From IMG/VR virus record IMGVR_UViG_3300045988_073455: DNA of 64,000 nucleotides; one strand, 5' to 3'. The notes below the pieces were generated by a model. That model did no database searches, was not told the DNA's origin, and saw only the letters and a program-made list of their open reading frames with translations. The DNA is from a virus. The translations under genes were made by a program, and so were the position numbers. This document shows positions 1,522 to 32,386 of the stretch, piece by piece (within the stretch, counting starts at the first letter, position 1; every line of letters starts with the position of its first letter).

Positions 1522-1547
1522 TATATAAATCTATAAACAAAAGAGCA

Positions 1548-1868
1548 ATGAAGATGTTACAAGACGTTACAGATTGGTTCAAGGCTGAAATTCTTGGCGA
1601 CCAATCATTACAACAGGAAAGAAAGAAACAGAAATCACAGAAAGATTTCGAGAAGCGTATTAATGAAGCAGCTCATCATGTCTGCCTATCCGATCGTCCT
1701 AATGATGATGGGTCTCCATATCCTGTTATCTGCATGGATGGCACCGTTATCTACAAAATCTGCGAGAATCCTCGAATCGAGAAAGGAGAAATCAGCCTTG
1801 AAGATGTAGGGGAAGTTTTGGTAAGACAACGCATTCATTATGCCGAAAACAAGCTGAATTACAGATAG
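1548..1868 (+). CDS. hypothetical protein
   Basis: 106-aa ORF. Its ATG is embedded in AAGAGCAATGAA (start-context motif I). Confidence 0.55.
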   Translation: MKMLQDVTDWFKAEILGDQSLQQERKKQKSQKDFEKRINEAAHHVCLSDRPNDDGSPYPVICMDGTVIYKICENPRIEKGEISLEDVGEVLVRQRIHYAENKLNYR

Positions 1869-1923
1869 TTATGCGGTTTAAAAGTTAAATAAAGTTGCTA
1901 AAAAGCGATTAAAGAAAGTAACG

Positions 1924-1955
1924 TTTGGTCAATCCAAAATTTCTTTGTATCTTTG
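1924..1955 (+). promoter_or_regulatory. class I promoter copy 1 (TTTGGTCA -33 / TATCTTTG -7)
   Basis: TTTG at 1924..1927 and TAtcTTTG at 1948..1955, with a 20-nt spacer. An upstream AAGTTAAAtaAAGTTGC element and a conserved leader ending in TAAGAGCAATG are present. Confidence 0.6.
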
Positions 1956-2005
1956 CATCAGTTAATTAAACAACAAATAAGTTTAACAATTAAATGATAA
2001 GAGCA

Positions 2006-2251
2006 ATGAAAAAGGTAAAGTACGTTATTAAGGCAACAAAGTTCAAAGATAACACATACGAAGATGTTGTTTTTGAAAATCAGCCACTCAGTCAAAAACA
2101 AGAAACATTCAGTGACGTAAAGCACATCTTAGATTTGGATTTCGAGAATGCTTTAGACGAAGGCAAGAAAGTTCAGTATGACGGAGTAGAGCTTGATATC
2201 TTCAATGAAGATGGTACAATTCTTAAAGAATGGATTCAAGACGTAGCATAA
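2006..2251 (+). CDS. hypothetical protein
   Basis: Track ORF 1994..2251. The motif I ATG at 2006 (gaTAAGAGCAATGaaa) is the likely start. Confidence 0.55.
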   Translation: MKKVKYVIKATKFKDNTYEDVVFENQPLSQKQETFSDVKHILDLDFENALDEGKKVQYDGVELDIFNEDGTILKEWIQDVA

Positions 2252-2294
2252 AGGTAATGGGGTGACTAACAATCACTCCACAATATATAGAGCA

Positions 2295-2459
2295 ATGAAA
2301 TACGAAGAAACGTTTAAATCCGAAGTAGCTTCAATTGAAGCTATGCTTTACAAAGCAAAACAACGTAGAAAAGAATATGGTGCATTGAATGCCATCATAT
2401 TCATGAAAGGATGGCTTAAAGTTGTCTACGAAGAACTGAACGATTTCACATTGACTTAA
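2295..2459 (+). CDS. hypothetical small protein, paralog of 17891..18052
   Basis: Motif I ATG at 2295. The protein starts MKYEETFKSEV...FMKGWLKVV and aligns with the product of 17891..18052 (MKYEETFKQQM...YMRGWLKGI). Confidence 0.55.
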   Translation: MKYEETFKSEVASIEAMLYKAKQRRKEYGALNAIIFMKGWLKVVYEELNDFTLT

Positions 2460-2467
2460 CAAAAGAT

Positions 2468-2587
2468 ATGAAACACGTATGTAGTAATTGCATATCTTCC
2501 GATATATGCTATTGTGAAGGCAAGAAGCCTAATGACACTTGCCATCAATGGGAATGGAGATATACAGGTTTATGGTTTGATAATTAA
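2468..2587 (+). CDS. hypothetical Cys-rich mini-protein (39 aa)
   Basis: Hand-translated MKHVCSNCISSDICYCEGKKPNDTCHQWEWRYTGLWFDN. It fills an intergenic gap. Confidence 0.3.
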   Translation: MKHVCSNCISSDICYCEGKKPNDTCHQWEWRYTGLWFDN

Positions 2588-2598
2588 AAAGTAAGACA

Positions 2599-2892
2599 AT
2601 GGGGAAAGAAAAAGTTACAGTAAACGATTTGAAGGTTACACTCTCAGAGCTTGGTGTAACATCTGGCTTGAAGCAGGAAAAGATTATTCAACGCCTGCAG
2701 GTCAATGGCTGTTTGATTGCAATGGTAACAGATGTATTGGATCAGCTCATCAAGGATGAACAGGGCATGTTTAGGCTGTTAAGCGTTCGCTACAAGCAAG
2801 AGCAGAAGATGCACTACACCCAGATGCAGGATGCAGCCAAAAAGTACTACTTCCATTTGAAACCCTTTAATAAGAGTTTCTTCGGTGACTAG
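2599..2892 (+). CDS. hypothetical protein (in-frame TAG followed by a 48-codon open extension)
   Basis: 97-aa ORF. See the finding on 2890..3039. Confidence 0.55.
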   Translation: MGKEKVTVNDLKVTLSELGVTSGLKQEKIIQRLQVNGCLIAMVTDVLDQLIKDEQGMFRLLSVRYKQEQKMHYTQMQDAAKKYYFHLKPFNKSFFGD

Positions 2893-3043
2893 AATATTTG
2901 CGCCAACCTGGAGGATAACGCAAATGACATCTATGAAATCATCAAGCTTCTTGCGGACCACACTAACGACCACAAGGATATGGAAGTGATTAAGAGAAAC
3001 CTCAGAAAGAGAAAGTTGAACCATCATATTTTCGATTAAGATT

Positions 3044-3283
3044 ATGTCAGTATATAAAGCAAACGTAGATTTATCAGACTTATTTCACGATATGTCTTAC
3101 AATTATCAGAAAAGCTTCCTTGTTGAAGAGTTCTGTTCTTTACCTATAGAACATCAGGTAAAAGTTGTTGGCGAAATGCTGGAGAACCTTAATGGCGATC
3201 AGACAGCCAAAGTTATAGAAGACGCTTTTGATAACTTGCATGAGCAAGGTCAAGAGCATGTAATCAACTATGTAAACGGATAA
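3044..3283 (+). CDS. hypothetical protein
   Basis: 79-aa acidic ORF. Confidence 0.5.
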   Translation: MSVYKANVDLSDLFHDMSYNYQKSFLVEEFCSLPIEHQVKVVGEMLENLNGDQTAKVIEDAFDNLHEQGQEHVINYVNG

Positions 3284-3287
3284 AGAT

Positions 3288-3488: not shown

Positions 3489-3492
3489 TGAT

Positions 3493-4473
3493 ATGGAAAA
3501 GAATATTAATTTAGCGAAAATCTTAAATGGTAAACCAGTAAATACGAAGTTGTGGTCTCCCTTATTTGGAGATGTATATACTTCAAGCATATGCAGCGAA
3601 GATACTATAATAGTAGTAAATCACCATGCTGAATCAGCTTCTTTCTATAATAATGGCAAGTACTTTGATCATGCAGAAGCAGAACCTCTATTGTTCCCAT
3701 CTAAAGAAATGCGAGATTGGGGTAAGTTCGCCTGGAAGAAGGGCGATTTGCTTATCAATAGTTGTGGATTTCAGTGCATTTTCAAAGAATGGGCATCTGG
3801 CGATTATACAAAGTTCAACGGATGCTATTCTAATAGCAGGGATGGTTACGAAGACGTAACAAATGCAGAAACAGCTAAGTTTGACAAGTTAGATAACAAT
3901 ATTGCCTATGGATATGTCAGAGAGATTGAAAGAAAATTAGGAGGAATATTAAACCTCACCACTTTGGAGATTGAAAAGCAGTATGAGTTCAAGGATGGAG
4001 ATATAGCTTTTGCCGACTATGGTAATAGACAAGATGTATTTATTGTATCAGGCAAAACTGGTTTATCAGAAGGTTATAGCTCATTTATTTCTTTAGATTT
4101 AAGTAGTCTAACTTTGAGTATGGCATGCAGAACTAGTTTCTTTAAGAAAGACCTTTGTGAACTTCGCCTTGCCACAGAAGAAGAGAAAAAACAGCTCTTC
4201 TCAGCTCTCGAAAAGAAAGGTAAGGTTTGGGATAGTGAGCATAAAATGATTGTGGACTTACCTAAGAAGTGTGAGTTTAAGCCATTCGATAAGGTGTTGG
4301 GGCGAAATGAGAAATATGATGTATGGGAAGCTGAACTCTTTTCTCATTATAGAGAAAAATCACAATATCCTTTTCGTTGTATCGGATTTGGTCGTAAGTA
4401 TTGTATTCCTTACAATGAAGAGACAGCACATCTACTAGGAACGACTGATGATTGGGAAGGAGGTGAGCAATGA
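3493..4473 (+). CDS. hypothetical protein
   Basis: 326-aa ORF. Its stop overlaps the next ATG (ATGA). Confidence 0.65.
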   Translation: MEKNINLAKILNGKPVNTKLWSPLFGDVYTSSICSEDTIIVVNHHAESASFYNNGKYFDHAEAEPLLFPSKEMRDWGKFAWKKGDLLINSCGFQCIFKEWASGDYTKFNGCYSNSRDGYEDVTNAETAKFDKLDNNIAYGYVREIERKLGGILNLTTLEIEKQYEFKDGDIAFADYGNRQDVFIVSGKTGLSEGYSSFISLDLSSLTLSMACRTSFFKKDLCELRLATEEEKKQLFSALEKKGKVWDSEHKMIVDLPKKCEFKPFDKVLGRNEKYDVWEAELFSHYREKSQYPFRCIGFGRKYCIPYNEETAHLLGTTDDWEGGEQ

Positions 4474-4954: not shown

Positions 4955-4958
4955 GCGT

Positions 4959-5138
4959 ATGAAAGAGTTTAAAGTTGGAGAAAGAGTAGTCTTGGAGATT
5001 ACTGAAACCGAGGAAGAAACTTGCTATGGTTGTTTCTTTTTTGGCAATAGTGCTTGTGAAGTTTGGAGGAAATACCCATGCGATTCTAAACTACGTAAGG
5101 ATAATAAGAATGTAATCTTTGAAGAGGTTAAGGAGTAA
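4959..5138 (+). CDS. hypothetical small protein (59 aa)
   Basis: Start lies in TAAGCGTATGAA (start-context motif II). Sequence MKEFKVGERVV... Confidence 0.4.
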   Translation: MKEFKVGERVVLEITETEEETCYGCFFFGNSACEVWRKYPCDSKLRKDNKNVIFEEVKE

Positions 5139-5143
5139 AGCGT

Positions 5144-5317
5144 ATGAAACAGAAGTTGAAAATGATATGGCGAATCCTCCGTGACAGACAGGTTGTAGTA
5201 ATAACCGAAAGTTACGGAAGACTATATTGTAATTGGGATGCAAGAAGTCTTGAAGATGTTTGCCAAATGTGTTGTGAGACATTTGATAAAGCTAAAGAAA
5301 TGTTGGATAAAAAGTAA
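5144..5317 (+). CDS. hypothetical small protein (57 aa)
   Basis: Start lies in TAAAGCGTATGAA (motif II). Sequence MKQKLKMIWRIL... Confidence 0.4.
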   Translation: MKQKLKMIWRILRDRQVVVITESYGRLYCNWDARSLEDVCQMCCETFDKAKEMLDKK

Positions 5318-5323
5318 AGAGAT

Positions 5324-5866
5324 ATGTTGTACGAAGCAAAAAAGGGAAGTAAGGCTTACGAATACATTAAAGGTATTCTCGAAGCTGAAGAAAAAGAGCG
5401 TCAAGCCTACACGAAAAGAGTGGAAGAAGCCGTAGGCTTCGAGTTTGAAAAATATCAGGGCTATCAGCCTAACAGAACTCTCTCAAGAGAGTACGAGGTT
5501 ACTGCTATATGGGTTCTTTCTGAGCGTTACGATACGCTAGATAAGAAGGTGTGGAAGAAGATAGACGGTGTAAAATTGGAGGACGGTTACTATGTATGCA
5601 TTGCGCCTAACAAGCGTAGTAAGCAAGGTAAGGCAATAGCAGCAGTACTTACATCATATAAATCCTTTACTCATCATTTCAAGATATTGAAGGAACTGAA
5701 TATCGAAGTTCCGCACGTCAGCCGATTCTCCATCACCCAGCTTTTACGTCACAAAGAACGCATTTTCGTTTACTTCGATGATAGTATTAGAGCTGAGAAG
5801 CAAAATCCAGACTTCGTGGAAATCACGATAGGTGAGTATGAGGATTTCATTAATGGTAAAGACTAA
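5324..5866 (+). CDS. hypothetical protein
   Basis: 180-aa ORF. Confidence 0.6.
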   Translation: MLYEAKKGSKAYEYIKGILEAEEKERQAYTKRVEEAVGFEFEKYQGYQPNRTLSREYEVTAIWVLSERYDTLDKKVWKKIDGVKLEDGYYVCIAPNKRSKQGKAIAAVLTSYKSFTHHFKILKELNIEVPHVSRFSITQLLRHKERIFVYFDDSIRAEKQNPDFVEITIGEYEDFINGKD

Positions 5867-5870
5867 GCGT

Positions 5871-6281
5871 ATGGATAAGTTAGAATATATTCCAGGAGAT
5901 TTTGTGACAATAGAAACAGAATCAACGAAACCAAGAGTAGTAAAAGTTTCAGATGTTGATAAGAATAGTGTTATCTATTGTGAAGGTTGGGGAAATGTCG
6001 GTTACTATGACGAGATAAAACCTATTCCTTTAACAAAGGATATACTTCTTAGAAACGGATGGAAAGTTAGCAGAGATTCGTTGTTGCTAAAAATTGATGA
6101 TAATGTTACATTGGGGGTTGTCTTTGCATTTGAACATAAAGTTTGTTATATCAGAGCAACGAATGACATTATTCACAAAGAGCAAAATTTTACTAGGTTG
6201 AAGCTTTCTGATGTTGATTTTGTTTCTGATTTACAGCACATTCTTTTCGGCTTGAACATTAATCACGAAATGGAGGTGTAG
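5871..6281 (+). CDS. hypothetical protein
   Basis: Track ORF 5832..6281. The motif II ATG at 5871 (cTAAGCGTATGga) is the likely start. Confidence 0.55.
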   Translation: MDKLEYIPGDFVTIETESTKPRVVKVSDVDKNSVIYCEGWGNVGYYDEIKPIPLTKDILLRNGWKVSRDSLLLKIDDNVTLGVVFAFEHKVCYIRATNDIIHKEQNFTRLKLSDVDFVSDLQHILFGLNINHEMEV

Positions 6282-6283
6282 GT

Positions 6284-6478
6284 ATGAAAAGAATAATAGC
6301 AATTATAAAGTTTCCTATATACGCAATGGTTGTATTATTGTTTATTCTATCAATACTGACAGCAAAAGGTATATTGTGTATCGTAAGATTAAAGCCTTCT
6401 GATTTCGATAATCTTCCTAAGTTCTTGCAAGACAAAGCAAGGAAGCTGTCAAATGTGGTTGAAAATTTAATGAATTGA
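6284..6478 (+). CDS. small membrane protein
   Basis: 64 aa with a hydrophobic segment FPIYAMVVLLFILSILTA. Confidence 0.45.
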   Translation: MKRIIAIIKFPIYAMVVLLFILSILTAKGILCIVRLKPSDFDNLPKFLQDKARKLSNVVENLMN

Positions 6479-6512
6479 TTGTTTAACGCCTTCTGGCATA
6501 AATAGTAGTAAT

Positions 6513-6668
6513 ATGACATCAGAACAAGTAGCAAAAGTATTGAGTTCTCTAGGTAAACGAAAGGTATGCTTTCAGCATGGAGACAAAGTAGAGATAGTTA
6601 AGGGAATCAACGTAACAAATGATAACGTGATTCTGATTAGTGAACTTCCTTCGAGCACAAATAGTTAG
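6513..6668 (+). CDS. hypothetical small protein (51 aa)
   Basis: Hand-translated MTSEQVAKVLSSLGKRK... Confidence 0.35.
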   Translation: MTSEQVAKVLSSLGKRKVCFQHGDKVEIVKGINVTNDNVILISELPSSTNS

Positions 6669-6671
6669 AAT

Positions 6672-6815
6672 ATGAAACATATTAAGTTTACAATAGATAT
6701 AACATTGTCTCCTGATAAAGAGTTCCTTACGAAGGAAGACTTTGTGGAGGCAGTATATACATGTTATGGAAACATTAGAGATGTTGCTCCTGATACAATA
6801 ATAAAGATTGATTAA
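6672..6815 (+). CDS. hypothetical small protein (47 aa)
   Basis: Hand-translated MKHIKFTIDITLSPDKE... Confidence 0.35.
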   Translation: MKHIKFTIDITLSPDKEFLTKEDFVEAVYTCYGNIRDVAPDTIIKID

Positions 6816-6845
6816 CCATCCGCAAGGATATAAATAGATAGTAAT

Positions 6846-7061
6846 ATGAATACAGAAAAATTAGAAAGAGCAAATATCTTAGCAAAGAGTTTAATTCCTA
6901 AAGTAAATGAACTCTTAAATATATCTCCAAAATCAATGCGTAGTAGTCTTGCTGATGCTATTTGTTGGCTTTCAGAGTGTGATGAAGAGTTTAAAACAAA
7001 ATTCAAGCAGCTTCTGAATGAAACAAAACAGAGATTTCAGAAAGAGTTTGATGATTTGTAA
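6846..7061 (+). CDS. hypothetical protein
   Basis: 71-aa helical-looking ORF. Confidence 0.45.
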   Translation: MNTEKLERANILAKSLIPKVNELLNISPKSMRSSLADAICWLSECDEEFKTKFKQLLNETKQRFQKEFDDL

Positions 7062-7309
7062 CTAACCACCCTCTCCTTGGTGAAATTAAGATAATAACGA
7101 AAAAGCCGTGCTCGAATTAGATTGGTTGGCATTAGGTGTAGCCGTAAAATATCAATTACCGCTTGACAATTCACCTCAGAGCACTCTTATGTGGAAAAGG
7201 CATCAAGCATTTAGTACACATCGAAGAACGTTAATGAGTGAAAGGCTCATAAAGACTCCAATCCGTTATTATTTTGATAACATCATGGAGAGGGTAAAAA
7301 GATTAGAAT

Positions 7310-7633
7310 ATGGCAGAGATTATTTATTTTGGAACGAATGGATGTTCCTGTTATTGTCCTATCGGCATCGACAAAGTGCTGACCTCGGCAGAATATGGAA
7401 TGTGGTGCGAATGCGATAATGAAACTTGGATAAATAATATCCGAAAGAATCCTGGTCGCCATCTCATCAAGCATCACGGAGAGGTTTATACTAATTATGG
7501 TGTTCCGTTCTCTGTAGATGTTGACAGAGGTGGTAGTCATACCGAACTATTTTGGAAAGGCATTCATTCGGAAGAAGAAATTGTCAACTTGATAAAGAAT
7601 AATCAGTTTTTGGCAAGGCAATTTAAAAAGTAG
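7310..7633 (+). CDS. hypothetical Cys-rich protein
   Basis: 107 aa (GTNGCSCYCP...WCECDNE). Preferred over the overlapping GTG-start ORF 7108..7419. Confidence 0.5.
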   Translation: MAEIIYFGTNGCSCYCPIGIDKVLTSAEYGMWCECDNETWINNIRKNPGRHLIKHHGEVYTNYGVPFSVDVDRGGSHTELFWKGIHSEEEIVNLIKNNQFLARQFKK

Positions 7634-7937
7634 GAGGAATAGTCATAAGTGATAGTTATATATATTATGGAAGTGATGGCTCGTATCATATAATACGCCC
7701 GATAGGAGAAGGATTTGATATAGAGACAGCTTTCTTAATAGCCTTGGTGATTGTTGCTATATACGTCATGTTTCATTATTCCCCAAAGGAAGTTTGGAAT
7801 AAAATAAAGTCGTATTTTAAAGAATTATAGTTATGGTTGGATTTTATGTTATTCTTACCATAGCTATTCTATATATAGCTTTTGTGGGCGGAGTTATCGG
7901 TTATTTAATTGGTAAATATTGGAAAAAGAAATAGCGT

Positions 7938-8303
7938 ATGAATATAAAAGACATCAAGTTCAAGGGTAAACGTCTTGACAATAACACTTGGGTAGAAGGT
8001 TACTTCTATGCTGAATGTGGTAACACTTACATCATCGAGGATAGGCAGAGTGAATCAATGCTTAATAGAAACGAGGCACATCGGGTTAACCCTTCAACAG
8101 TCTGTATGTTCACAGGACTGACAGACAAGAATGGAACACCTATCTATGAGGGGGATATAGTTATGTACAAAGATAACAATGCGGAAAGAAGAGGTGATAT
8201 TAATTGGGATAGTAAATCTACTGCTTTCTGCTTTGGGCAAGATTTCTTAGTTCACTACCCTTCTGAAGATATGGTAGTTGTCGGCAACAAATTCGATAAG
8301 TAG
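7938..8303 (+). CDS. YopX-like protein
   Basis: KGKRLDNNTWVEGYF...VCMFTGLTDKNGTPIYEGDIV matches the YopX signature as I recall it. Start is in motif II. Confidence 0.6.
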   Translation: MNIKDIKFKGKRLDNNTWVEGYFYAECGNTYIIEDRQSESMLNRNEAHRVNPSTVCMFTGLTDKNGTPIYEGDIVMYKDNNAERRGDINWDSKSTAFCFGQDFLVHYPSEDMVVVGNKFDK

Positions 8304-8306
8304 CGT

Positions 8307-8540
8307 ATGAAGAATAAGATATTAGACTTTATCAAATCAGCCGTTTGGCTCTTTTTGATTTTCATAATAGGGGTATTTGGTTTTAGGGTTTCTTTCAGCT
8401 TAGGAACTCCACACAAAAAAGAAGAGTTTAATATAAAAATATTCACCAAGAAAGGACATGAATACCTGTTTGTGGGCAAGGAACATGGAGCTTGCGTTAT
8501 TATTCACGCTAGTAGTTGTCCTTGTAATAAAAAGAAGTAG
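8307..8540 (+). CDS. small membrane protein
   Basis: 77 aa with TM segment AVWLFLIFIIGVFGF. Start is in motif II. Confidence 0.45.
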   Translation: MKNKILDFIKSAVWLFLIFIIGVFGFRVSFSLGTPHKKEEFNIKIFTKKGHEYLFVGKEHGACVIIHASSCPCNKKK

Positions 8541-8543
8541 CTT

Positions 8544-8915
8544 ATGAAAGTAAAGAATTTACCAAAGAAGATTTACCTCAACATCTGTAGCAACGAAGAT
8601 GTGGTAGATTACAATAAGCTGAACGGAGTAACGTTCAGCTCAGAAAAGGTTGGTGTTACCGATTGTGATACGGAAAACGTTCCTTACGTGAATGCTGCAT
8701 CATTATGGCGCGACCTAAAAGAAGATAAGCCACCATTAAGAAAGTGGGTGATGTTCCGATATAGTGGAGGTGGCGTAAATCCTACGGCTCTTCACTACGG
8801 AGCAATGAGTGATGATGTATGGATTGTCACAAGAGGAGACGGAACACAGCGTATTGAAGTTCTGTACGAGTGCTACGATAAAATAGAGTGGCTTGATTTT
8901 GATGAACTAAAATAG
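8544..8915 (+). CDS. hypothetical protein (possibly DUF551-like)
   Basis: 123 aa. The pattern W..L.EDKPP...WVMF resembles DUF551 phage proteins. This is weak. Confidence 0.45.
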   Translation: MKVKNLPKKIYLNICSNEDVVDYNKLNGVTFSSEKVGVTDCDTENVPYVNAASLWRDLKEDKPPLRKWVMFRYSGGGVNPTALHYGAMSDDVWIVTRGDGTQRIEVLYECYDKIEWLDFDELK

Positions 8916-8924
8916 TAATAGCGT

Positions 8925-9245
8925 ATGAAGGTTAGATTAGCTAAGAAGATTATGAAACGTTGCTACGGAAGTCCTCACTATTTAAGGATGGTATTGGATG
9001 GTTTAGATGTATCGAAAAAGCAGCCTAAGATTAAGCAATACTGGGAGCCTAGATGGGCTTCGTATTATGCTAGCAAAGGTGGTGGTTATGGCAGAGCTGA
9101 CCATCGTATCGTAAAGGCTGAAAAGATTACTGCAAGATATTCTCGTAAGCTAATGAATTGCCTTACTAGATGGGCTGGCAAAACTCCTTTCGAGGTTAGA
9201 GATACATTAAGTAGTGCAAATAAACTAAAAAGATATGACTTATGA
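8925..9245 (+). CDS. hypothetical protein
   Basis: 106-aa basic ORF. Start is in motif II. Confidence 0.5.
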   Translation: MKVRLAKKIMKRCYGSPHYLRMVLDGLDVSKKQPKIKQYWEPRWASYYASKGGGYGRADHRIVKAEKITARYSRKLMNCLTRWAGKTPFEVRDTLSSANKLKRYDL

Positions 9246-9511
9246 TAAGAGAAAGATATTATTACGCAGTAGCCGCCTTCATGCGTAAGGATGGCAAATT
9301 AACCTATACCTCAGTTACGAGCTCTGTTAAAGGTGAAGAGAAGGATATAGTTTTCTATCCTCTCATGAACCTCATCACGGACGTAGAAGAGAAATTCAAG
9401 GATGATATGGTTAGCGGTACAACTCTCATACATAGCGTTATTGAGATTAGTAAAGAGGACTATGATGCCTACAATGATCGTATTGCTAAAATTAACGAGA
9501 AGGAGGGTTAG
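9242..9511 (+). CDS. hypothetical protein
   Basis: 89-aa ORF with ATGA overlap to the upstream gene. Confidence 0.5.
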   Translation: MIRERYYYAVAAFMRKDGKLTYTSVTSSVKGEEKDIVFYPLMNLITDVEEKFKDDMVSGTTLIHSVIEISKEDYDAYNDRIAKINEKEG

Positions 9512-9514
9512 CAC

Positions 9515-9886
9515 ATGACTTTTTTGAATATTACTATAGGTGAGAAGGAGTTTGATGAAATCAAAGAAGGCAAGGTAGGACTAGTATGTTTACCTTGCAC
9601 TCCACGTTGGTGTCATACCATTGTCGAAGGTGTAAAGAGGGAAGAAAGATTAGACCGATTAACGATCAGAATAGATAGTAACGGCAAACCTCATATTCGG
9701 TATGGTTACTCTCTTGAACATTACTTTAAGAAAGTTGATTATGTTCAGCTTTCCTGTAAGGTTGGTTCTCAAATAAGAGTTCTCGTTAAGGATTGCGCAG
9801 GTTTCAGTATTGAGACTACTCAAACGAAAAAGGATAATGCCTTTATCGAGTTTAAGCCAAAAAACTTTGTTGTTCATCTAAAATGA
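9515..9886 (+). CDS. hypothetical protein (possible ASCH/PUA-like)
   Basis: 123 aa. The N-terminal GEKEFDEIKEGK resembles the ASCH N-terminus. Confidence 0.45.
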   Translation: MTFLNITIGEKEFDEIKEGKVGLVCLPCTPRWCHTIVEGVKREERLDRLTIRIDSNGKPHIRYGYSLEHYFKKVDYVQLSCKVGSQIRVLVKDCAGFSIETTQTKKDNAFIEFKPKNFVVHLK

Positions 9887-10473: not shown

Positions 10474-10731
10474 CACTCCGTAACACCATGTTAAAAGCAG
10501 TTTTTGCGCTTTTCTTGTCAAATTAGCTTCCTGTAGTTTCCTGTAACATTAGTTAAGTTAACGAAACGGCAAAAATCACACATAAGCCTTTCTAAGCTGT
10601 CTATTTTTCTTCTCCATATCCTTATATCATTTTTCAGAAAAAGCCCTATATAGAGGGAAATAGGTTTTATTTAACACACTAGCAATCAATAAGTTATATA
10701 AAGTTAAGCAAGAAAAATAATGAGGTTAAAA

Positions 10732-10763
10732 TTTGGTCAAATGCTAAAAAATGACTACCTTTG
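10732..10763 (+). promoter_or_regulatory. class I promoter copy 2
   Basis: TTTGGTCA at 10732 and TAccTTTG at 10756..10763, 20-nt spacer. The conserved leader cactatcaaaaataaataataacaattaaaagaTAAGAGCAATG follows. Confidence 0.65.
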
Positions 10764-10804
10764 CACTATCAAAAATAAATAATAACAATTAAAAGATAAG
10801 AGCA

Positions 10805-11071
10805 ATGAAACAGACAATAAACGTATCAAACAAAGCTGAGGTTGTAGCAGTAGTTACAAGTGATTTTGATGGAGGTTATAACTATTTCGAAGGTGACATT
10901 CGTAAGGGTAATCTTAGAGCTCATGTAATTAACTACTTCCAAGGTAACAAGTTGAGAATCCAGATTACCTATTGGGAGGATGGCAAAAGTGTGGCAGTTG
11001 AAACCGCTTCAACATGTTCAACAGCAAAGGGAATTGTTAGTAAGGTTTCTAAATTCTTAGATATTAAGTAA
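10805..11071 (+). CDS. hypothetical protein
   Basis: 88 aa. Start is in motif I. Confidence 0.55.
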   Translation: MKQTINVSNKAEVVAVVTSDFDGGYNYFEGDIRKGNLRAHVINYFQGNKLRIQITYWEDGKSVAVETASTCSTAKGIVSKVSKFLDIK

Positions 11072-11122
11072 ATAAAAAGGTAACGGCTGGTCCAACCAAC
11101 TAGTCACAATAAGAGCAATGAA

Positions 11123-11389
11123 ATGTTAGACAGAACAAACATTCACTTTAAGAAAGCAGTTAATGCTGTATTGGTAAAGGTTAGCAGAATACATAACAAT
11201 ACCATATCAGTAAGTATTAACCAAAGATTCATCGACATCACTTTGTTGGATAATAATTCTGGTATTTTTTATTCAGACATGATAAGCCATTTTTTAAGCA
11301 AGGATGAAATCCTTCAGAAGTTAGATAACTTCAATAAAATGTATCACGCATGGGTGCAACTTCAAAAGAAAGGAGGTCGCCATGAGTAA
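11123..11389 (+). CDS. hypothetical protein
   Basis: 88 aa. The motif I ATG at 11118 is out of frame (ATG AAA TGT TAG). The real ATG is 5 nt later. Confidence 0.5.
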   Translation: MLDRTNIHFKKAVNAVLVKVSRIHNNTISVSINQRFIDITLLDNNSGIFYSDMISHFLSKDEILQKLDNFNKMYHAWVQLQKKGGRHE

Positions 11390-11600: not shown

Positions 11601-11625
11601 TAACTGCATATAAAAAGTAAGAGCA

Positions 11626-12645
11626 ATGAAGACAGACAACGTTTTAGAGCATTTCGCTGAAATGATGATTTCACGAATGCAAAAGATGAAGGCAGGAGAT
11701 TGGAAGATGGGTTGGTTCACCACATCTTATGGTGGTAACCCAGTGAACCTTGGAGGGCGTGAATATAATGGAATGAACTCATTCTTCCTGTTCCTCTGCA
11801 TGATGGACGAAGAAAGATTCAAATATCCTATCTTTGCTACCTTCAATCAGATAAAGGCATTAGGAGCTAGTGTGAACAAAGGAGAGAAAAGCTTCCCTGT
11901 TCTGTTTTGGTCCATTCAGTACAAAGACAAGAATGGAAACAAAATAACAGAAGACAGCTACAATGGAATGACTCGATCAGCCCAACTAGACTGCAAAGTC
12001 CAGCCTTTCTTGAAGAGCTACAACGTGTTCAATCTCAGCCAAACCAACCTCGAAGAGATAGCACCTAAGACGATGCAGAAGTTGAAGGAGAAGTTCAGTC
12101 TCAAAGATAAGGATGAGTTGCCGACAGACACGGCTGGTATGTACGTCAACGAGAAAATTGATGATATGCTTCTTTATCAGAAGTGGCTCTGCCCTATCCG
12201 CTACGACAAGTATTCAAGTGGAGCTTTTTACAGATTTGGGGTAGATGATATTACAACACCACTTAAAAGTCAGTTCAAGAAGGGCAATACAGAGCAGGAG
12301 ATATTCGAGGATGGACAGGAGTACTACTCAACCCTTCTACATGAAATGGTTCACTCAACAGGGCATAAGTCTAGATTGAATAGAGGGTTTGAGAATGAGA
12401 AAGGAGAAAAGGACTATGCAAGAGAAGAGTTGGTTGCAGAGCTTGGAGCAGCTCTTATCGGAAACGTCCTAGGCTTTAGCAGTCGCATTTTAGATAATAA
12501 CGCTGCTTACCTAGATGGTTGGATCAGCAAGCTTAAAAAGCAACCAAAGTTCATCGTTTCTGTTTTGACAGACGTAAACAAGGCAGCTAAAATGGTATTA
12601 GAAATCGTGAACAAAGAAAAGGCACAATTACTAATGCCTGCATAA
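11626..12645 (+). CDS. ardC: ArdC-like anti-restriction protein (ssDNA-binding N-domain plus zincin metalloprotease)
   Basis: 339 aa. The N-terminus has the ArdC/DUF1738-like pattern (GGNPVNLGGREYNGMNSFFL), and the C-terminus has HEMVHSTGH (HExxH). Start is in motif I. Confidence 0.75.
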   Translation: MKTDNVLEHFAEMMISRMQKMKAGDWKMGWFTTSYGGNPVNLGGREYNGMNSFFLFLCMMDEERFKYPIFATFNQIKALGASVNKGEKSFPVLFWSIQYKDKNGNKITEDSYNGMTRSAQLDCKVQPFLKSYNVFNLSQTNLEEIAPKTMQKLKEKFSLKDKDELPTDTAGMYVNEKIDDMLLYQKWLCPIRYDKYSSGAFYRFGVDDITTPLKSQFKKGNTEQEIFEDGQEYYSTLLHEMVHSTGHKSRLNRGFENEKGEKDYAREELVAELGAALIGNVLGFSSRILDNNAAYLDGWISKLKKQPKFIVSVLTDVNKAAKMVLEIVNKEKAQLLMPA

Positions 12646-12700: not shown

Positions 12701-12767
12701 ATTCATTATCATCAAAAACATAAAAAGCTCTATAAGCGAAAATAAATATGCAATTTCTTAGTTAAAC

Positions 12768-12800
12768 CTATTTGTTGATTAAATATTTTTAGTATCTTTG
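12768..12800 (+). promoter_or_regulatory. class II promoter copy 1 (CTATTTGTTGATTAAATA ... TATCTTTG)
   Basis: The box CTATTTGTTGATTAAATA at 12768..12785 contains the -33 TTTG. The -7 TAtcTTTG is at 12793..12800. Lies 20 nt upstream of the portal ATG. Confidence 0.65.
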
Positions 12801-17851: not shown

Positions 17852-17890
17852 CACTATCAAAATAAAAATAACAATTAAAAGATAAGAGCA

Positions 17891-18052
17891 ATGAAATACG
17901 AAGAAACGTTTAAACAACAAATGGTAGTAATTGAAGCCATGGTAGAAAAGACCAAAAAGGCGAAGGAAGAGAACTGCGACCTTTATGCTCTCATTTACAT
18001 GAGGGGATGGCTTAAAGGAATTGTAGATGATTTGGATAAGATTATCCCTTAA
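17891..18052 (+). CDS. hypothetical small protein (53 aa), paralog of 2295..2459
   Basis: Hand-translated MKYEETFKQQMVVIEAMVEKTKKAKEENCDLYALIYMRGWLKGIVDDLDKIIP. Motif I start. Below the ORF-track cutoff. Confidence 0.55.
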   Translation: MKYEETFKQQMVVIEAMVEKTKKAKEENCDLYALIYMRGWLKGIVDDLDKIIP

Positions 18053-18481: not shown

Positions 18482-18528
18482 GAAGGAAATGGTAGGGCTA
18501 ACCACCCTACCTCAATACGATAAGAGCA

Positions 18529-20474: not shown

Positions 20475-20485
20475 AAGTTAGAGCA

Positions 20486-21034
20486 ATGGAACAGAAGTTA
20501 TTAGATTTGATTATCCATATAGGACAAGTTAGAGGTTGGGCTGTAGATGCTACAGATAATGGCAATGACTTTGCCTACATCTTCTTTCAGCGTTATTCTC
20601 CTGCTGGTCAAGATTTCAACATGTCAATCGAAATGCCAAACAATGACCCGAATGAGTTTTTGAAGAACCTCGATGATTACTACGAGAACTTCGATCCAGA
20701 TAGTGAAGCCCTAAACCGGTGTGACAAAGAAGGTCATGGTATAAATGGAGCACCCAAACGCTTGAAGGATATCATCATTGATTTCGAGGAAATCGAAAAG
20801 GAAATCAAAGAACTCCTAGAAGTGTTCAATCTTCAAATAGAGGAACTAGAGAAAGCTGCCATTCACAAGGTTAAAGTGCAAGTCACCGAATACCTGCAAA
20901 AGGTAGTGGAGGTTGATGCCATCAATGGCAGTGACGCATGCGATAAAGTCGAAGAAATGGTTAATGGATCAGAAATCATCTTGACAGCAGACGATTTCAC
21001 AACAAGAAACATTGAGCCTTATGAAGATAAGTAA
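20486..21034 (+). CDS. hypothetical acidic protein
   Basis: 182 aa. Start lies in TTAGAGCAATGG, a motif I variant. Confidence 0.6.
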   Translation: MEQKLLDLIIHIGQVRGWAVDATDNGNDFAYIFFQRYSPAGQDFNMSIEMPNNDPNEFLKNLDDYYENFDPDSEALNRCDKEGHGINGAPKRLKDIIIDFEEIEKEIKELLEVFNLQIEELEKAAIHKVKVQVTEYLQKVVEVDAINGSDACDKVEEMVNGSEIILTADDFTTRNIEPYEDK

Positions 21035-21272: not shown

Positions 21273-21382
21273 GTTAGCAAAAAGTACTTTATGCTCAAAA
21301 CGTTTGGTCATTTGCAAAAAAATGATTACCTTTGCACTATCAAAAATAAATAATAACAATTAAAAGATAAGAGCAATGAAAC
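21241..21382 (+). repeat. direct repeat copy L (gene 3' end plus class I promoter plus leader)
   Basis: Near-identical to 30867..31014. There is one mismatch over roughly the first 107 nt, then small indels. Confidence 0.85.
21303..21334 (+). promoter_or_regulatory. class I promoter copy 4
   Basis: TTTGGTCA at 21303 and TAccTTTG at 21327..21334. Confidence 0.65.
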
Positions 21383-21654: not shown

Positions 21655-21666
21655 AATATAAGAGCA

Positions 21667-22011
21667 ATGAAACTGATTACGAAAGAAATTAAGAAGAGAC
21701 TGGAAAAATATCCTCTCTACTCGCAGGATGGTAAAAAGGAAGAAGCCATCTGTCAAGCAAAGTTCTTCCTTTGTGTTGGTGCATGGTCTTGGTTCATATT
21801 GGAAGCAGACCTAGAGAACAATATCGCCTACGGAATCACTATCAATGGAAGTGGTGAAGGCGAGTACGGCTACACAAGCTTAACCGAGTTGCAGGGGCTA
21901 ACAACTAAGTTAGGCTTAACCGTAGAGCGAGACACCTCATTCTCCCCTACTCCACTAAAGGATATTAATAACGAATATCTAAAGAAGTTTCTTAAGAAAA
22001 TGTACGCTTGA
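21667..22011 (+). CDS. DUF2958-like protein
   Basis: KYPLYSQDGKKEEAICQAKFFLCVGAWSWFILEAD...YGYTSLTELQ matches the DUF2958 pattern as I recall it. Motif I start. Confidence 0.55.
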   Translation: MKLITKEIKKRLEKYPLYSQDGKKEEAICQAKFFLCVGAWSWFILEADLENNIAYGITINGSGEGEYGYTSLTELQGLTTKLGLTVERDTSFSPTPLKDINNEYLKKFLKKMYA

Positions 22012-22038
22012 AAATAATTTCTCACTTTTTTCGAGAAA

Positions 22039-22072
22039 CTATTTGTTGATTAAATAATTTTATCTATCTTTG
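22039..22072 (+). promoter_or_regulatory. class II promoter copy 2
   Basis: CTATTTGTTGATTAAATA at 22039..22056 and TAtcTTTG at 22065..22072. It is preceded by AAAATAATTTCTCACTTTTTT, which is shared with the copy at 33205. Confidence 0.65.
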
Positions 22073-22573: not shown

Positions 22574-22646
22574 GCGGAGATAGCTCAGTTAGCAGAGCGC
22601 AGTGATACCATCACTGAGGTCGTTGGTGCGGCTCCAACTCTCCGCT
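22574..22646 (+). tRNA. non-canonical tRNA-Gly-like, anticodon ACC
   Basis: 73-nt cloverleaf. Acceptor GCGGAGA/TCTCCGC with discriminator U. D arm GCTC-AGTTAGCA-GAGC lacks G18G19. Anticodon arm CAGTG-ATACCAT-CACTG. T arm GTTGG-TGCGGCT-CCAAC has no TTC. Confidence 0.6.
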
Positions 22647-22651
22647 CTTTT

Positions 22652-22725
22652 GCGGGTATAGCTCAGTCGGTCAGAGCGTTACATTCCCAATGTGAAGGTC
22701 GAAGGTTCGAGTCCCTCTAGCCGCT
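22652..22725 (+). tRNA. tRNA-Gly (anticodon CCC) with stem mismatches
   Basis: Acceptor GCGGGTA/TAGCCGC has a G5.G68 mismatch, discriminator U. Anticodon loop TTCCCAA. T arm GAAGG-TTCGAGT-CCCTC has an A51.C63 mismatch. Confidence 0.7.
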
Positions 22726-22754
22726 CTATTTTTGTAGAATTAAAATAAAAGAGC

Positions 22755-23822
22755 ATGAAAATAGCAGTTATAGGAACGGGCAACGTGGGAGTAGCTTTTG
22801 CCGCAGACCTCTCTATTAAAGGTCATGAAGTTACACTCCTAAAGACATCTTCATACAAATCAGATGCCTTTGATAGACTTATCAAGAACGGCAAAAGGGT
22901 TTTTCTTAAAGAGAAATCAACTTATATAGAAACTGCAATCAAAGAGGTTTCTAAAGACCTCAGTAAGGTTGCAGAAGCAGAAGTTATATTTTGTACTATT
23001 CAGAGTAACTTCTATGAGGGTCTAGTAGAACGTATACATCAATACCTTCACAATGATCAGATTGTTGTCTGTATCTCTAGTTACGCATCCTCTTTCTATT
23101 TTGAGAAACATTGCAGAAAACTACCAATGTTAGTTGAAGCAACAGGTCCATATTTGGAAGGACGAGTAGAGTTGGATGATAAACCAAACGAAGTTGTTTT
23201 TCGTGTTGGTTATAGGCATGAAGTTATTCCTGTAGCATGCTTTTCTAATCATGATACCTGCATGGAGAAACTGCATAAAATTAGCAAAGGTTTTATAGCA
23301 AAATATTGCGTGCTTGAATCTGCATTACTCAATCCAAATATGGTGTTGCATACGGTAGGTTCAATTATGAGTATTCCGAGAATAGAATATTCAAAGGGAA
23401 ATTTCTGTATGTATCGTGAAGCATACGCAAGAGGAAATGACTCCACCATCAATCTATTGATGAGACTTGACGAAGAAAAGATGAAAGTCTTAAAAAGCTT
23501 GGGCTTTTTCAAAACAAGCGTATTTGAAGCAGGAGGTTTTAATATGTCAGACCCAATAGAGAGTTTGCATCGTTACTCAGAATCTAGTGATAGAGCCATC
23601 AGCCCAACATCTGTTCACTCACGTTACATCACAGAAGACGTTTCAGAGGGATTGGTACTGATGGAGAGTATTGCACTTCATATAGGCTTAGAGTTACCAG
23701 TTACATCATCCCTCATTACGCTTGCAAGTGTAGCTTTAGGAATAGACTTCCGTAAGACAGGAAGAACTATTCAGAGATTAGGTATTATTAACGAAATAGA
23801 TATGCTTCATGAATGTAGATAG
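22755..23822 (+). CDS. NAD(P)-dependent opine (octopine/nopaline) dehydrogenase-like oxidoreductase
   Basis: 355 aa. N-terminal Rossmann motif MKIAVIGTGNVGVAFAADL. The C-terminal RYITEDVSEGLVLMESIA...LPVTSSLITLAS resembles the octopine-DH C-domain. Confidence 0.6.
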   Translation: MKIAVIGTGNVGVAFAADLSIKGHEVTLLKTSSYKSDAFDRLIKNGKRVFLKEKSTYIETAIKEVSKDLSKVAEAEVIFCTIQSNFYEGLVERIHQYLHNDQIVVCISSYASSFYFEKHCRKLPMLVEATGPYLEGRVELDDKPNEVVFRVGYRHEVIPVACFSNHDTCMEKLHKISKGFIAKYCVLESALLNPNMVLHTVGSIMSIPRIEYSKGNFCMYREAYARGNDSTINLLMRLDEEKMKVLKSLGFFKTSVFEAGGFNMSDPIESLHRYSESSDRAISPTSVHSRYITEDVSEGLVLMESIALHIGLELPVTSSLITLASVALGIDFRKTGRTIQRLGIINEIDMLHECR

Positions 23823-27805: not shown

Positions 27806-27807
27806 TT

Positions 27808-29099: not shown

Positions 29100-29112
29100 T
29101 ATTATAAAGAAT

Positions 29113-30627: not shown

Positions 30628-30628
30628 A

Positions 30629-30660
30629 TTTGCAAGATACAGAAAAGTTTTGTAACTTTG
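30629..30660 (+). promoter_or_regulatory. promoter of candidate sRNA R1
   Basis: TTTG at 30629..30632 and TAacTTTG at 30653..30660, 20-nt spacer. Confidence 0.55.
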
Positions 30661-30666
30661 CAGCCG

Positions 30667-30732
30667 AAACGTTACCTTTAACGTTTCATTGCTCTTAGTG
30701 CACTCCGACCGTGAGGTTAGAGTGCATTTTTT
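30667..30732 (+). ncRNA. candidate sRNA R1 (seed antisense to start-context motif I)
   Basis: 5' hairpin AAACGTT/AACGTTT. Then CGTTTCATTGCTCTTA (30682..30697), of which CATTGCTCTTA (30687..30697) is unpaired. Terminator stem TGCACTC/GAGTGCA followed by T6 (30727..30732). Confidence 0.5.
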
Positions 30733-30866
30733 ATTTAATATAAAGTAATTCAGAAAAAGACTATACACTTCAATATAAGCCTTTCTAAGCGGTTCATTTT
30801 TTATCTCCATATAACTTATACCATTTTTAAGAAATAGACTTACATACACAAAATTAATAGTTTGAC

Positions 30867-31014
30867 ATAAGTATCTGAATAACAATAAGTTAAACTAAGT
30901 TAGCAAAAAGTACTTTATGCTCAAAACATTTGGTCATTTGCAAAAAAATGATTACCTTTGCACTATCAAAAATAAAATAACAATTTAAAAGATAGGAGAT
31001 AAGAGCAATGAAAC
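30867..31014 (+). repeat. direct repeat copy R (orphan gene 3' end plus class I promoter plus leader)
   Basis: Near-identical to 21241..21382. It includes the last 32 nt of gene 21021..21272 without the rest of that gene. Confidence 0.85.
30929..30960 (+). promoter_or_regulatory. class I promoter copy 5
   Basis: TTTGGTCA at 30929 and TAccTTTG at 30953..30960. Confidence 0.65.
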
Positions 31015-31421
31015 TAATTGGAATGGAAACGTCAGATTATAACGAAACACGTTATATACAATGTGAGACAATGGAAGAATACAACGATGTTTTGAAACGT
31101 GAAAAGAGTAAACACGGAATTAAAAATGGTGCAGATGTTACCACTTACGTTTACGAAACATCAAATTCTTCAAAAGTTGCAGGAAAAGTCATTAATACAA
31201 ACCTTGAAGTTGAAATCTACTATACTGGCGCAAAATTTCGTGAACTCTATGCAAAACCATCTACAAATCCAGAAATAGATAGAGAAGTAAAAGCTCATGA
31301 GGTGTATGGAGGCTGCGGCATAATCACATATAAGGAGAAAGGTATCTCAAAACAATACTATGGTGTTGGGCATAAAACATTCAACACCAAGAAAGAAGCG
31401 AAAAAATATATTGATGAGTAA
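31008..31421 (+). CDS. hypothetical protein
   Basis: 137 aa. Motif I start. Confidence 0.55.
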   Translation: MKLIGMETSDYNETRYIQCETMEEYNDVLKREKSKHGIKNGADVTTYVYETSNSSKVAGKVINTNLEVEIYYTGAKFRELYAKPSTNPEIDREVKAHEVYGGCGIITYKEKGISKQYYGVGHKTFNTKKEAKKYIDE

Positions 31422-31437
31422 TTAAAAGATAAGAGCA

Positions 31438-31656
31438 ATGAACGTTTACACAGAATCAGATAGATATACGGTATTACTTCACGCATTCGACACTTTTGAA
31501 GGTGCTTGTGAGTATATAACTCAAATTATAAATGTATGGGAGTGTAAGGTTCTCCCCCTCATAAAAGCATGGAATGACGGTGTGGTTACAGCTAAATGGA
31601 TGGCTAAGAAAACCGAAAAAGGAATAAAATTTGAATTGTTGGATAGCAATGTTTAA
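31438..31656 (+). CDS. hypothetical protein
   Basis: 72 aa. Motif I start. Confidence 0.5.
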   Translation: MNVYTESDRYTVLLHAFDTFEGACEYITQIINVWECKVLPLIKAWNDGVVTAKWMAKKTEKGIKFELLDSNV

Positions 31657-31671
31657 TAGGAGGAAACGGAT

Positions 31672-31863
31672 ATGACAGTATATGAATTATCGGAACTTCA
31701 GAAAGAAGAACTCAAAACCGAAATATTGAAAGATAAGTTTGTTGGGTACAAACTTTCATTCAGAGAGTTAGCATGTGCTAATGATTGCATCAGCGACCGA
31801 GAGTTGTTCGAAAAATTCAAGGACCAGACCTTTACGGATAATGACTTCATCGTATCACGCTAA
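31672..31863 (+). CDS. hypothetical protein
   Basis: 63 aa with GGAGG upstream. Confidence 0.45.
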   Translation: MTVYELSELQKEELKTEILKDKFVGYKLSFRELACANDCISDRELFEKFKDQTFTDNDFIVSR

Positions 31864-31873
31864 ATGGAATCGT

Positions 31874-32194
31874 ATGGAATGCAATTGCACAACAATAGAA
31901 GAGCTTAAATCCGTAACCACGCAGATTAGTGGTGATGAATGGAAAGATTTCTTCTCACTCATCAAAAAAGGCTCATATAGCCTTTATGGTTTCCACCAGT
32001 TTCTTGATGAGAGACCAGACCTATGCTTATTAATTCAAGGTATAGGAGATTACCAAACTGCCATTAAAGCTACGTTAGACGAAATCGGATTGAATGATGG
32101 TGATATAAATGGACCAGGAGGAAATCATCTTAAATTGATTGTGGCGGATCAGATAGGATTCATAGTATATGAAACTAAAGTTATGAACTTTTAA
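31874..32194 (+). CDS. hypothetical protein
   Basis: ATG at 31874 (aatCGTATGga) within track ORF 31775..32194. Sequence MECNCTTIEELK... Confidence 0.5.
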   Translation: MECNCTTIEELKSVTTQISGDEWKDFFSLIKKGSYSLYGFHQFLDERPDLCLLIQGIGDYQTAIKATLDEIGLNDGDINGPGGNHLKLIVADQIGFIVYETKVMNF

Positions 32195-32209
32195 AAATAA
32201 GATAGAGCA

Positions 32210-32386
32210 ATGGAAGAGAACGTTATCATAGCAATGGATGCCGAAAAGTCTAAAAAGATAAAAGGCATTCCTTCAAGTTGGGACTGGGAAGATATTCATT
32301 TCTACCTCATTACTGAATTGGGATTCAATTTTGATGTTGTGTTCAATTATTCAAAAGACATAGAGGAGGTATCTTATGAAGGATAA
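32210..32386 (+). CDS. hypothetical small protein (58 aa)
   Basis: Hand-translated MEENVIIAMDAEKSKKIKGIPSSWDWEDIHFYL... Start lies in ATAGAGCAATGG, a motif I variant. Confidence 0.4.
   Translation: MEENVIIAMDAEKSKKIKGIPSSWDWEDIHFYLITELGFNFDVVFNYSKDIEEVSYEG

Follow-up and report, generated by a model that had tools for sequence, protein, structure and literature searches.

Why do 14 genes of a single phage begin with nearly the same letters around their start codons? The question is raised by a 64,000-nt stretch of viral DNA, IMG/VR record IMGVR_UViG_3300045988_073455 (in the following the window, to which all positions refer), which is a prophage of a gut Bacteroidales host. A first inspection of the letters and their open reading frames (ORFs), here called the sequence-only reading, had noted a start-codon motif reused at unrelated genes, and had proposed for it a shared trans-acting ligand, either an antisense RNA or a RegA-like repressor, or alternatively a role as recombination boundary. 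This motif, hereafter the tag, was analyzed in the window, in related viral loci and in host DNA. UAAGAGCAAUGAA is a lineage-wide translation-start tag, and its exact complement is found in a candidate small RNA, sRNA1, and in the leader of the late operon. We favour, with a probability of roughly 55%, the explanation that sRNA1 acts in antisense and blocks the start codons of the tagged gene set.

Copies of the tag in the window

When the motif was counted on both strands against a shuffled control, as proposed with the sequence-only reading, 17 copies of AGAGCAATG were found in the window where 0.89 are expected (100 dinucleotide-preserving shuffles, the highest of which held 4). With up to one mismatch the 10-mer AAGAGCAATG is present 23 times, compared to 7.9 expected copies. 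Fifteen of the 17 copies lie on the + strand, which is the gene strand, and two on the opposite strand. Of those on the + strand 14 sit on gene-start ATGs, and these match exactly the 14 ATG positions listed before; the fifteenth (53310) is intragenic. The variant shorter by one base that had been reported for gene 22755 (AAAAGAGCATG) is present as well. The tag is nearly confined to gene-strand starts and is not equally frequent away from them. All tagged starts lie between 1.5 and 32.2 kb, and none of the approximately 55 gene starts between 33.4 and 64 kb is tagged. The highly expressed structural genes, i.e., those for capsid, portal and terminase, start without the tag. Recognisable domains among the tagged proteins are ArdC-like, DpnD/PcfM-like and DUF2958, and the remaining proteins match nothing.

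The copies are not all independent of each other. Five of them (2006, 10805, 17891, 21376 and 31008) form the 3' end of a duplicated promoter-plus-leader cassette of about 100 nt, and genes 2295 and 17891 are paralogues. The reuse of the motif across gene starts is real, but the independence implied by the term unrelated ORFs was overstated. In the non-cassette copies the similarity is confined to about -10 to +6.

Two observations were made directly upstream of single copies. At three non-cassette tags a G+C-rich hairpin without T run is located 8-11 nt ahead of the tag (2255-2285, 11085-11105 and 18491-18511; e.g., GGTAGGGCTAACCACCCTACC), which may be a processing or stability element. Directly upstream of gene 22755 lies a pair of tRNA-Gly genes with the anticodons ACC and CCC (22574-22726).

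The tag in related phages

Seventy related viral loci were retrieved via the 872-amino-acid head-morphogenesis protein. In these, the 9-mer of the tag occurs 498 times on the gene strand and twice on the other strand, and 87% of those on the gene strand open an ORF of 40 amino acids or more, with dozens of distinct N-termini. Orthologues retain AAGAGCAATG even where the sequence upstream of -10 has been swapped for a hairpin, a promoter cassette or a Shine-Dalgarno-type AGGAG leader, and only a handful of point variants of AAGAGCAATG were seen across orthologues. These data support the view that the motif is conserved beyond its use as a start codon.

One argument put forward for this view by the sequence-only reading carries less weight. 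At 11118 the motif does hold an out-of-frame ATG (ATG AAA TGT TAG), with the actual start at 11123. The argument is weak because one relative has ATGAGAACGTTAGAC in frame (MRTLDRTN) at the corresponding gene. The form in the window appears to have arisen by a 1-nt deletion together with a new ATG, and about 60 relatives that are nearly identical have inherited it.

Among GenBank phages no named relatives were found, with the exception of one unannotated 11.8-kb faecal contig. Two contigs of the IMG/VR set, IMGVR_UViG_3300045988_113792 (L225/L258) and IMGVR_UViG_3300045988_141804 (L237/L253), carry two different large-terminase genes each, with 99% and 85% identity to the query in one contig and 93% and 78% in the other. 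These contigs may be tandem prophages or chimeric assemblies.

Host context and other start contexts

No copy of the tag is present in the 10 kb of host DNA that flank the prophage, and 666 kb of Bacteroidales chromosomal DNA, retrieved with a 16S probe, hold 4 copies where 5 are expected. As neither is enriched, a start context generic to the host, an explanation already considered by the sequence-only reading, is ruled out. The start rule of Bacteroidetes is a Kozak-like enrichment of A (PMC7366714), and mRNAs of Bacteroidota are generally without Shine-Dalgarno sequences (PMC7366714). The tag fits this rule with A at -6 and at -11 to -14; it has G, not A, at -3, and its GAGCA part is not accounted for by the rule. 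Pairing with 16S rRNA was likewise rejected, as in 44 full-length 16S genes of Bacteroidales the anti-tag finds a longest match of typically 7 nt, no better than shuffled sequences, and the core CATTGCTC does not occur in them. Judged from sequence comparison, the tag is specific to the phage and not a host start context, and this holds even if the pairing proposed below is not real.

Other types of gene start occur in the same phage. At about ten genes a strong GGAGG is found 6-9 nt before the ATG, in agreement with what had been reported for the window, and in some relatives AGGAG and the tag are combined. A second context, (T)AGCGTATGAA, is used at 7 gene starts in an array of small genes (4959-8925); no complementary copy of it is present anywhere in the window.

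A candidate small RNA carrying the complement of the tag

The two opposite-strand copies of the tag read CATTGCTCTTA on the + strand (30687-30697 and 33317-33327). Both lie in non-coding units with a promoter of the type TTTG, N19-20, TAnnTTTG at the start and a hairpin followed by a T run at the end. These two conserved units, with predicted promoters and terminators, expose the exact complement of the tag, CAUUGCUCUUA, in unpaired form, which favours the antisense-RNA option of the proposed trans-acting ligand.

The first unit, sRNA1, is predicted to fold with -27.9 kcal/mol (z = -6.6) into two hairpins joined by a linker whose unpaired probability is about 1.0. Its conserved block UUCAUUGCUCUUA exactly complements the conserved block of the tag, AAGAGCAAUGAA, and the perfect complementarity between sRNA1 and the different tags extends over 10-17 nt.

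To follow the unit in other phages, a covariance model was built from close copies. It found the unit immediately behind the large terminase gene in 72 loci, and already in this set compensatory changes are present at 4 pairs. Two pattern scans of viral contigs, one that used the linker and one that relied on the promoter plus the beginning of the hairpin alone, gave about 40 loci that are far more diverged. In the linker-free scan CATTGCTCT was found in 18 of 18 real hits. For 29 diverged members 95% of the cells are paired and compensatory changes are present at 19 of the 21 pairs, in a model-based alignment that was fitted to the structure of the model and favours that structure. The covariation score is 0.67, compared to at most 0.11 in slid controls, and none of 500 shuffles reaches it. 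Covariance-model alignments were used for the diverged copies, whose first hairpin was misplaced by MAFFT. Many of the pairs are G-U and workable only on the + strand.

Between lineages both hairpins have been rewritten while the linker UUCAUUGCUCUU remained constant; exceptions among the 29 members are a C-to-U change in two and a change of the terminal U to A in three. The predicted promoter and terminator are retained in the diverged members. On this comparative record sRNA1 is a real, conserved RNA family.

No family matching sRNA1 was found in Rfam. The best hit, BTnc201 (MasB; RF04177), stayed below threshold with 23 bits against 105 and matched mostly the terminator hairpin, and membership of sRNA1 in this family was rejected. 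The terminator hairpin with its GUGA loop is the part of sRNA1 that resembles Bacteroides MasB. In related phages hairpins of this type also occur without the linker (L083 9071-9126, L335 5171-5239, L484 4256-4324 and L353 419-490).

The leader of the late operon

The second complementary copy is part of the predicted capsid-operon leader, for which three hairpins are predicted. The copy occupies the apical loop of the middle one, where its unpaired probability is predicted as about 0.95. The third hairpin (33344-33372) together with a T run is a predicted terminator ahead of gene 33401. In 8 diverged late leaders the core of the loop, CATTGCTC, is invariant, whereas the stem covaries and the flanks of the loop change.

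Co-occurrence of the tag and the RNA

The 40 diverged sRNA1 loci (333 kb) contain 49 tags on the strand of the RNA, where about 1.5 are expected, and 46 of these open ORFs of at least 40 amino acids. Control viral loci hold 8 tags in 860 kb, both strands counted. The first tagged gene is located 145-540 nt downstream of sRNA1 on the same strand and matches the complement of the RNA perfectly over 10-17 nt.

Relatives without the tag were inspected for the RNA. It is absent from L259-L267. L253 and L254 carry a copy whose linker is degenerate and whose -7 box has been destroyed, and L258 a copy with two C-to-U changes in the linker. This is co-loss of tag and RNA and not compensatory co-variation.

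Proposed mechanism and alternative explanations

According to the mechanism we propose, the free linker of sRNA1 would pair first with the tag, over 11-15 nt across the AUG, and the pairing could be extended into the 3' arm of the 5' hairpin. The duplex would mask the start codon from the 30S subunit and in this way co-repress at least 14 genes in 5 operons; faster decay of the mRNA may follow. With an anti-tag in the late leader, repression may be coupled to late transcription; equally possible, sRNA1 might be active in the lysogen as an RNA immunity-like factor. That the RNAs are synthesised and pair with the tags, as well as the direction and timing of the effect, we infer from the features described above. 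The antisense explanation has a precedent, because small RNAs of Bacteroides have been proven to repress by pairing with start regions (GibS, PMC7366714). In a wider and more tentative version, to which we give somewhat less than even odds, the tag would act, in a family of gut Bacteroidales prophages, as an RNA barcode of a regulon: accessory and anti-defence genes would share the identical 12-13 nt, the RNA of about 70 nt and the late leader would silence all of them, and incoming genes would join by recombining at the tag.

Several results weigh against regulation by an antisense RNA. The promoters and terminators of sRNA1 and the leader, like the pairing with the tags, are predictions. For part of the diverged sRNA1 set the linker belonged to the retrieval pattern, and its invariance there is given by construction. 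No lineage was found in which tag and linker have changed jointly, both being nearly invariant, and in L253 and L254, which have a different repeated leader, no matching anti-sequence was detected in the 21 kb examined. L258, whose repeated leader differs too, likewise showed none in the DNA covered. A few variants do not have a perfect anti-tag: L222 shows a G-to-C change, and in L010 (two copies) 7 nt of the late leader are deleted. In a loose duplex-energy scan with a 21-nt seed, tags make up 13 of the approximately 22 best sites, and many unrelated sites score alike. Finally, the second recurring start context, AGCGTATG, is found at 7 gene starts and has no antisense partner, so that uniform starts can arise in this phage without an RNA ligand.

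This second context is also part of the case for an explanation without any ligand, which we consider unlikely. The tag would be a good or ancestral start region, spread by duplication of cassettes and recombination at gene boundaries, and its complements in sRNA1 and the leader would be relics of inverted gene-start duplications. It is consistent with this that 5 of the 14 copies are cassette duplicates, that the A positions follow the Bacteroidetes rule (PMC7366714), and that in sRNA1 the linker and the 3' arm of the hairpin before it together read as gene-start antisense (TAAGAGCAATGAAACGTT). A relic should decay, yet the linker has stayed fixed in the 29 members whose hairpins were rewritten, and the loop of the late leader behaves alike. 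Nor would a merely good start region be expected to deviate from the host rule at -3 and in GAGCA, to be avoided by the capsid, portal and terminase genes and to be absent from host-type DNA. Recombination could also be the main function of the tag, which would then be a microhomology of about 14 nt that lets related phages exchange accessory genes, as the sequence-only reading had considered. One gene is found behind varied upstream contexts and one cassette before varied genes, the identity not reaching beyond about -10 to +6, and homology breakpoints are present at 12 of 14 tagged gene starts. They are nearly as common at untagged ones (32 of 46), so that the idea is supported only in part and breakpoints do not appear to be specific to the tag; when only blocks of at least 800 nt are counted, the numbers are 11 of 14 and 20 of 46. 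Gene starts in general are mosaic joints in this phage. A joint leaves unexplained the strict coupling to the ATG in one register and the conserved anti-tag exposed in two structured RNAs, and we judge it rather improbable as the main function, although it can be compatible with the antisense-RNA explanation.

The RegA-like repressor suggested before would be a phage protein that recognises the tag on the mRNAs, and found no support. Like RegA operators, the tag is A-rich, mostly unstructured and overlapping with the AUG (PMC3014915), and for most proteins encoded in the tagged modules no function is known. However, a tblastn search of the window with a T4 RegA sequence gave only hits with E > 1 and no homologue, which is a weak test. 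RegA operators are degenerate and have no clear consensus (PMC3014915), whereas the tag is identical over 10-13 nt. A protein binding single-stranded RNA would furthermore leave the conserved complement in two RNAs unexplained. We regard this alternative as very unlikely. A homologue of ribosomal protein S21 was not found by tblastn either, again in a weak test.

Least probable of all, and hardly to be expected, is a DNA-level switch (inverton) in which an invertible promoter is flanked by inverted repeats, one formed by the linker of sRNA1 and the other by the first tag downstream. The two do match as a perfect inverted repeat of 15 bp (30683-30697 and 31000-31014) around 302 bp with an early-type promoter, and the layout recurs in diverged phages with repeats of 10-17 bp at 145-540 nt distance. 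However, only one orientation was seen in 83 of 83 alignments from 89 sRNA1-bearing loci searched at assembly level, and no invertase gene lies next to the segment. The other 13 tags, the copy in the late leader, the promoter and terminator of sRNA1 and the strand-specific G-U pairs would remain without explanation. Taken together, the explanation we prefer is still that of an antisense RNA acting on the tagged start codons.

Prophage context and further elements of the window

The assignment of the window as a Bacteroidales prophage is based on an identical integrase gene that adjoins 10 kb of chromosomal genes in a contig of the European Nucleotide Archive (ENA). The closest integrases in genomes are from Prevotella and other Bacteroidales assemblies. 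In another ENA contig (L269, 2318-3379) the integrase is flanked by more phage-type genes and not by host DNA, and the HSDR_N-domain gene adjoining it begins with the tag. Recognised genes of the window are those for portal (12820), head morphogenesis (14774), large terminase (29113) and major capsid protein (34607). The coordinates of the tag copies, the two RNA units and the GGAGG-preceded starts are collected in Table 1.

Table 1. Coordinates of tag copies, RNA units and GGAGG-preceded starts in the window.
Feature	Position	Strand	Description
Tag copy, ATG 1548	1540-1552	+	AAAGAGCAATGAA
Tag copy, ATG 2006	1998-2010	+	3' end of early-type promoter-plus-leader cassette, promoter 1924-1955
Tag copy, ATG 2295	2287-2299	+	Variant ATAGAGCAATGAA; gene paralogous to 17891 gene
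Tag copy, ATG 10805	10797-10809	+	Cassette end, promoter 10732-10763
Tag copy, ATG 11118	11110-11122	+	ATG out of frame, real start 11123
Tag copy, ATG 11626	11618-11630	+	ArdC-like gene (anti-restriction N-terminal domain and zincin peptidase)
Tag copy, ATG 17891	17883-17895	+	Cassette end, promoter 17820-17851
Tag copy, ATG 18529	18521-18533	+	387-amino-acid protein, function unknown
Tag copy, ATG 20486	20478-20490	+	Variant TTAGAGCAATGGA; gene with DpnD/PcfM-like domain
Tag copy, ATG 21376	21368-21380	+	Cassette end, promoter 21303-21334
Tag copy, ATG 21667	21659-21671	+	DUF2958 protein
Tag variant, gene 22755	22746-22759	+	Shorter by one base, AAAAGAGCATGAAA
Tag copy, ATG 31008	31000-31012	+	Cassette end, promoter 30929-30960; 15-nt perfect complement to sRNA1 314 nt upstream
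Tag copy, ATG 31438	31430-31442	+	
Tag copy, ATG 32210	32202-32214	+	Variant ATAGAGCAATGGA
Predicted sRNA1 promoter	30629-30660	+	Bacteroidota-type (TTTG, 20 nt, TAACTTTG); one of the 12 window matches
Candidate small RNA sRNA1	30664-30736	+	About 70 nt; 9-bp 5' hairpin, single-stranded linker AUUGCUCUU, terminator hairpin (30697-30728), U run
sRNA1 conserved block	30685-30697	+	TTCATTGCTCTTA, exact complement of tag TAAGAGCAATGAA
Predicted late-type promoter of capsid-operon leader	33240-33270	+	TTTG, 19 nt, TATATTTG; with conserved upstream element
Late-operon leader RNA	33274-33382	+	About 105 nt; three hairpins, anti-tag in apical loop of second
Anti-tag in leader loop	33317-33327	+	CATTGCTCTTA
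GGAGG-preceded starts	4455-4470, 6270-6284, 9497-9515, 11367-11382, 32360-32376, 36290-36307, 48985-49000, 53932-53949, 57573-57592		

The promoter pattern of Bacteroidota (TTTG, N18-21, TAnnTTTG; consensus as in PMC7366714) has 12 matches in the window, where 1.7 are expected, and all of them are on the + strand. Five matches (1924, 10732, 17820, 21303 and 30929) belong to one repeat family, the early-type promoter cassette. Four others (12771, 22042, 33240 and 56959) form a second, late-type family and are located ahead of structural genes. All tagged genes are in modules driven by early-type promoters, except gene 1548, whose upstream promoter lies outside the window. The early-type cassette promoter is predicted to be a strong promoter of host type, and the tagged genes belong to accessory or early modules.

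Both families contain further conserved elements. The late-type repeats (12738-12800, 22009-22072, 33207-33270 and 56926-56989) share an element of about 30 nt, …CTATTTGTTGATTAAATA…, before TAnnTTTG and are possibly activator-dependent late promoters. The spacer of the early-type promoter holds a short inverted repeat, GTCATTTGCAAAAAAATGA (10736-10755, 21307-21326 and 30933-30952), which could be a repressor operator. Another repeated element, ATAAGCCTTTCTAAGC…CTCCATAT, is present at 10582-10619, 30775-30812 and 62517-62554, and its copy at 30775 lies between sRNA1 and the early-type promoter. In relatives tandem CTAAGC(T/C)T repeats are found there. This element may be an operator or an iteron.

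In addition, the window carries a diversity-generating retroelement (50249-53491) with a reverse-transcriptase gene at 52109-53491. Its 120-nt repeat pair consists of a template (51683-51802) and a variable copy (51308-51427) at the 3' end of gene 50249-51472; 8 of the 9 mismatches fall on template adenines. A 108-nt sequence resembling a tRNA, into which about 37 nt are inserted, was detected at 38195-38302 (47 bits with the Rfam tRNA model, not called by ARAGORN). ORF 38239 starts inside this sequence, and relatives retain its 3' half just upstream of the same gene.

Comparison with known systems

In the literature searched no description of this tag and antisense-RNA system was found. New features are the identical tag on many genes in several operons, the presence of another anti-tag in the leader of the late operon, and the phylum of the host. 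If the pairing is real, many unrelated and fast-changing viral genes would be under the control of one compact post-transcriptional switch, and to our knowledge no phage small RNA that controls a regulon of several phage genes would have been described in Bacteroidota before sRNA1. In this phylum translation starts without Shine-Dalgarno pairing and regulation by RNA is barely explored. The element is widespread in viral contigs from the human gut and might provide an orthogonal part for translation control in the engineering of Bacteroidales.

The P4 CI RNA, OOP of lambda and sar of P22 are antisense-RNA regulators of phages. With these and with c4 of P1 and P7 (icd/ant) the proposed system would have in common that a phage RNA pairs at or near the ribosome-binding region and switches lytic or early functions off; c4 of P1 is required for full repression of ant (PMC8198154). 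However, c4, P4 CI, OOP and sar have only one or two target sites within a single operon, whereas here an identical tag is present on at least 14 genes in 5 operons. In addition, c4 and P4 CI are excised from the transcript they control, whereas sRNA1 has its own predicted promoter and terminator, and a predicted terminator and a separate predicted promoter lie between sRNA1 and the first tagged gene. The second anti-tag in the late leader, the lack of any sequence relationship and the other host phylum also set this phage apart.

In its build sRNA1 is like GibS and MasB (BTnc201) of Bacteroides, with a 5' hairpin, a single-stranded seed, an intrinsic terminator and a TAnnTTTG promoter. GibS represses via pairing across start codons in a phylum that does not use Shine-Dalgarno sequences (PMC7366714), and MasB has a length of about 100 nt (PMC10994844). 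Unlike sRNA1, both are encoded on the chromosome and have few host targets with imperfect pairing.

The mobile promoter/stem-loop cassettes (PeSL) of T4-type phages have been described as recombination modules. As in this phage, repeated promoter cassettes flank small variable genes in plastic regions, and homology between phages breaks there; PeSL differ in having no common start-codon tag and no complementary RNA. With RegA of T4, which controls about 30 mRNAs (PMC3014915), the proposed system would share that one phage factor halts translation of many early mRNAs around the AUG. RegA is a protein with degenerate, A+U-rich operators, whereas this phage has identical sites and a complementary RNA. 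Provided that the pairing is real, the tag and sRNA1 would be an RNA counterpart to the RegA regulon of T4, set by an exact sequence tag.

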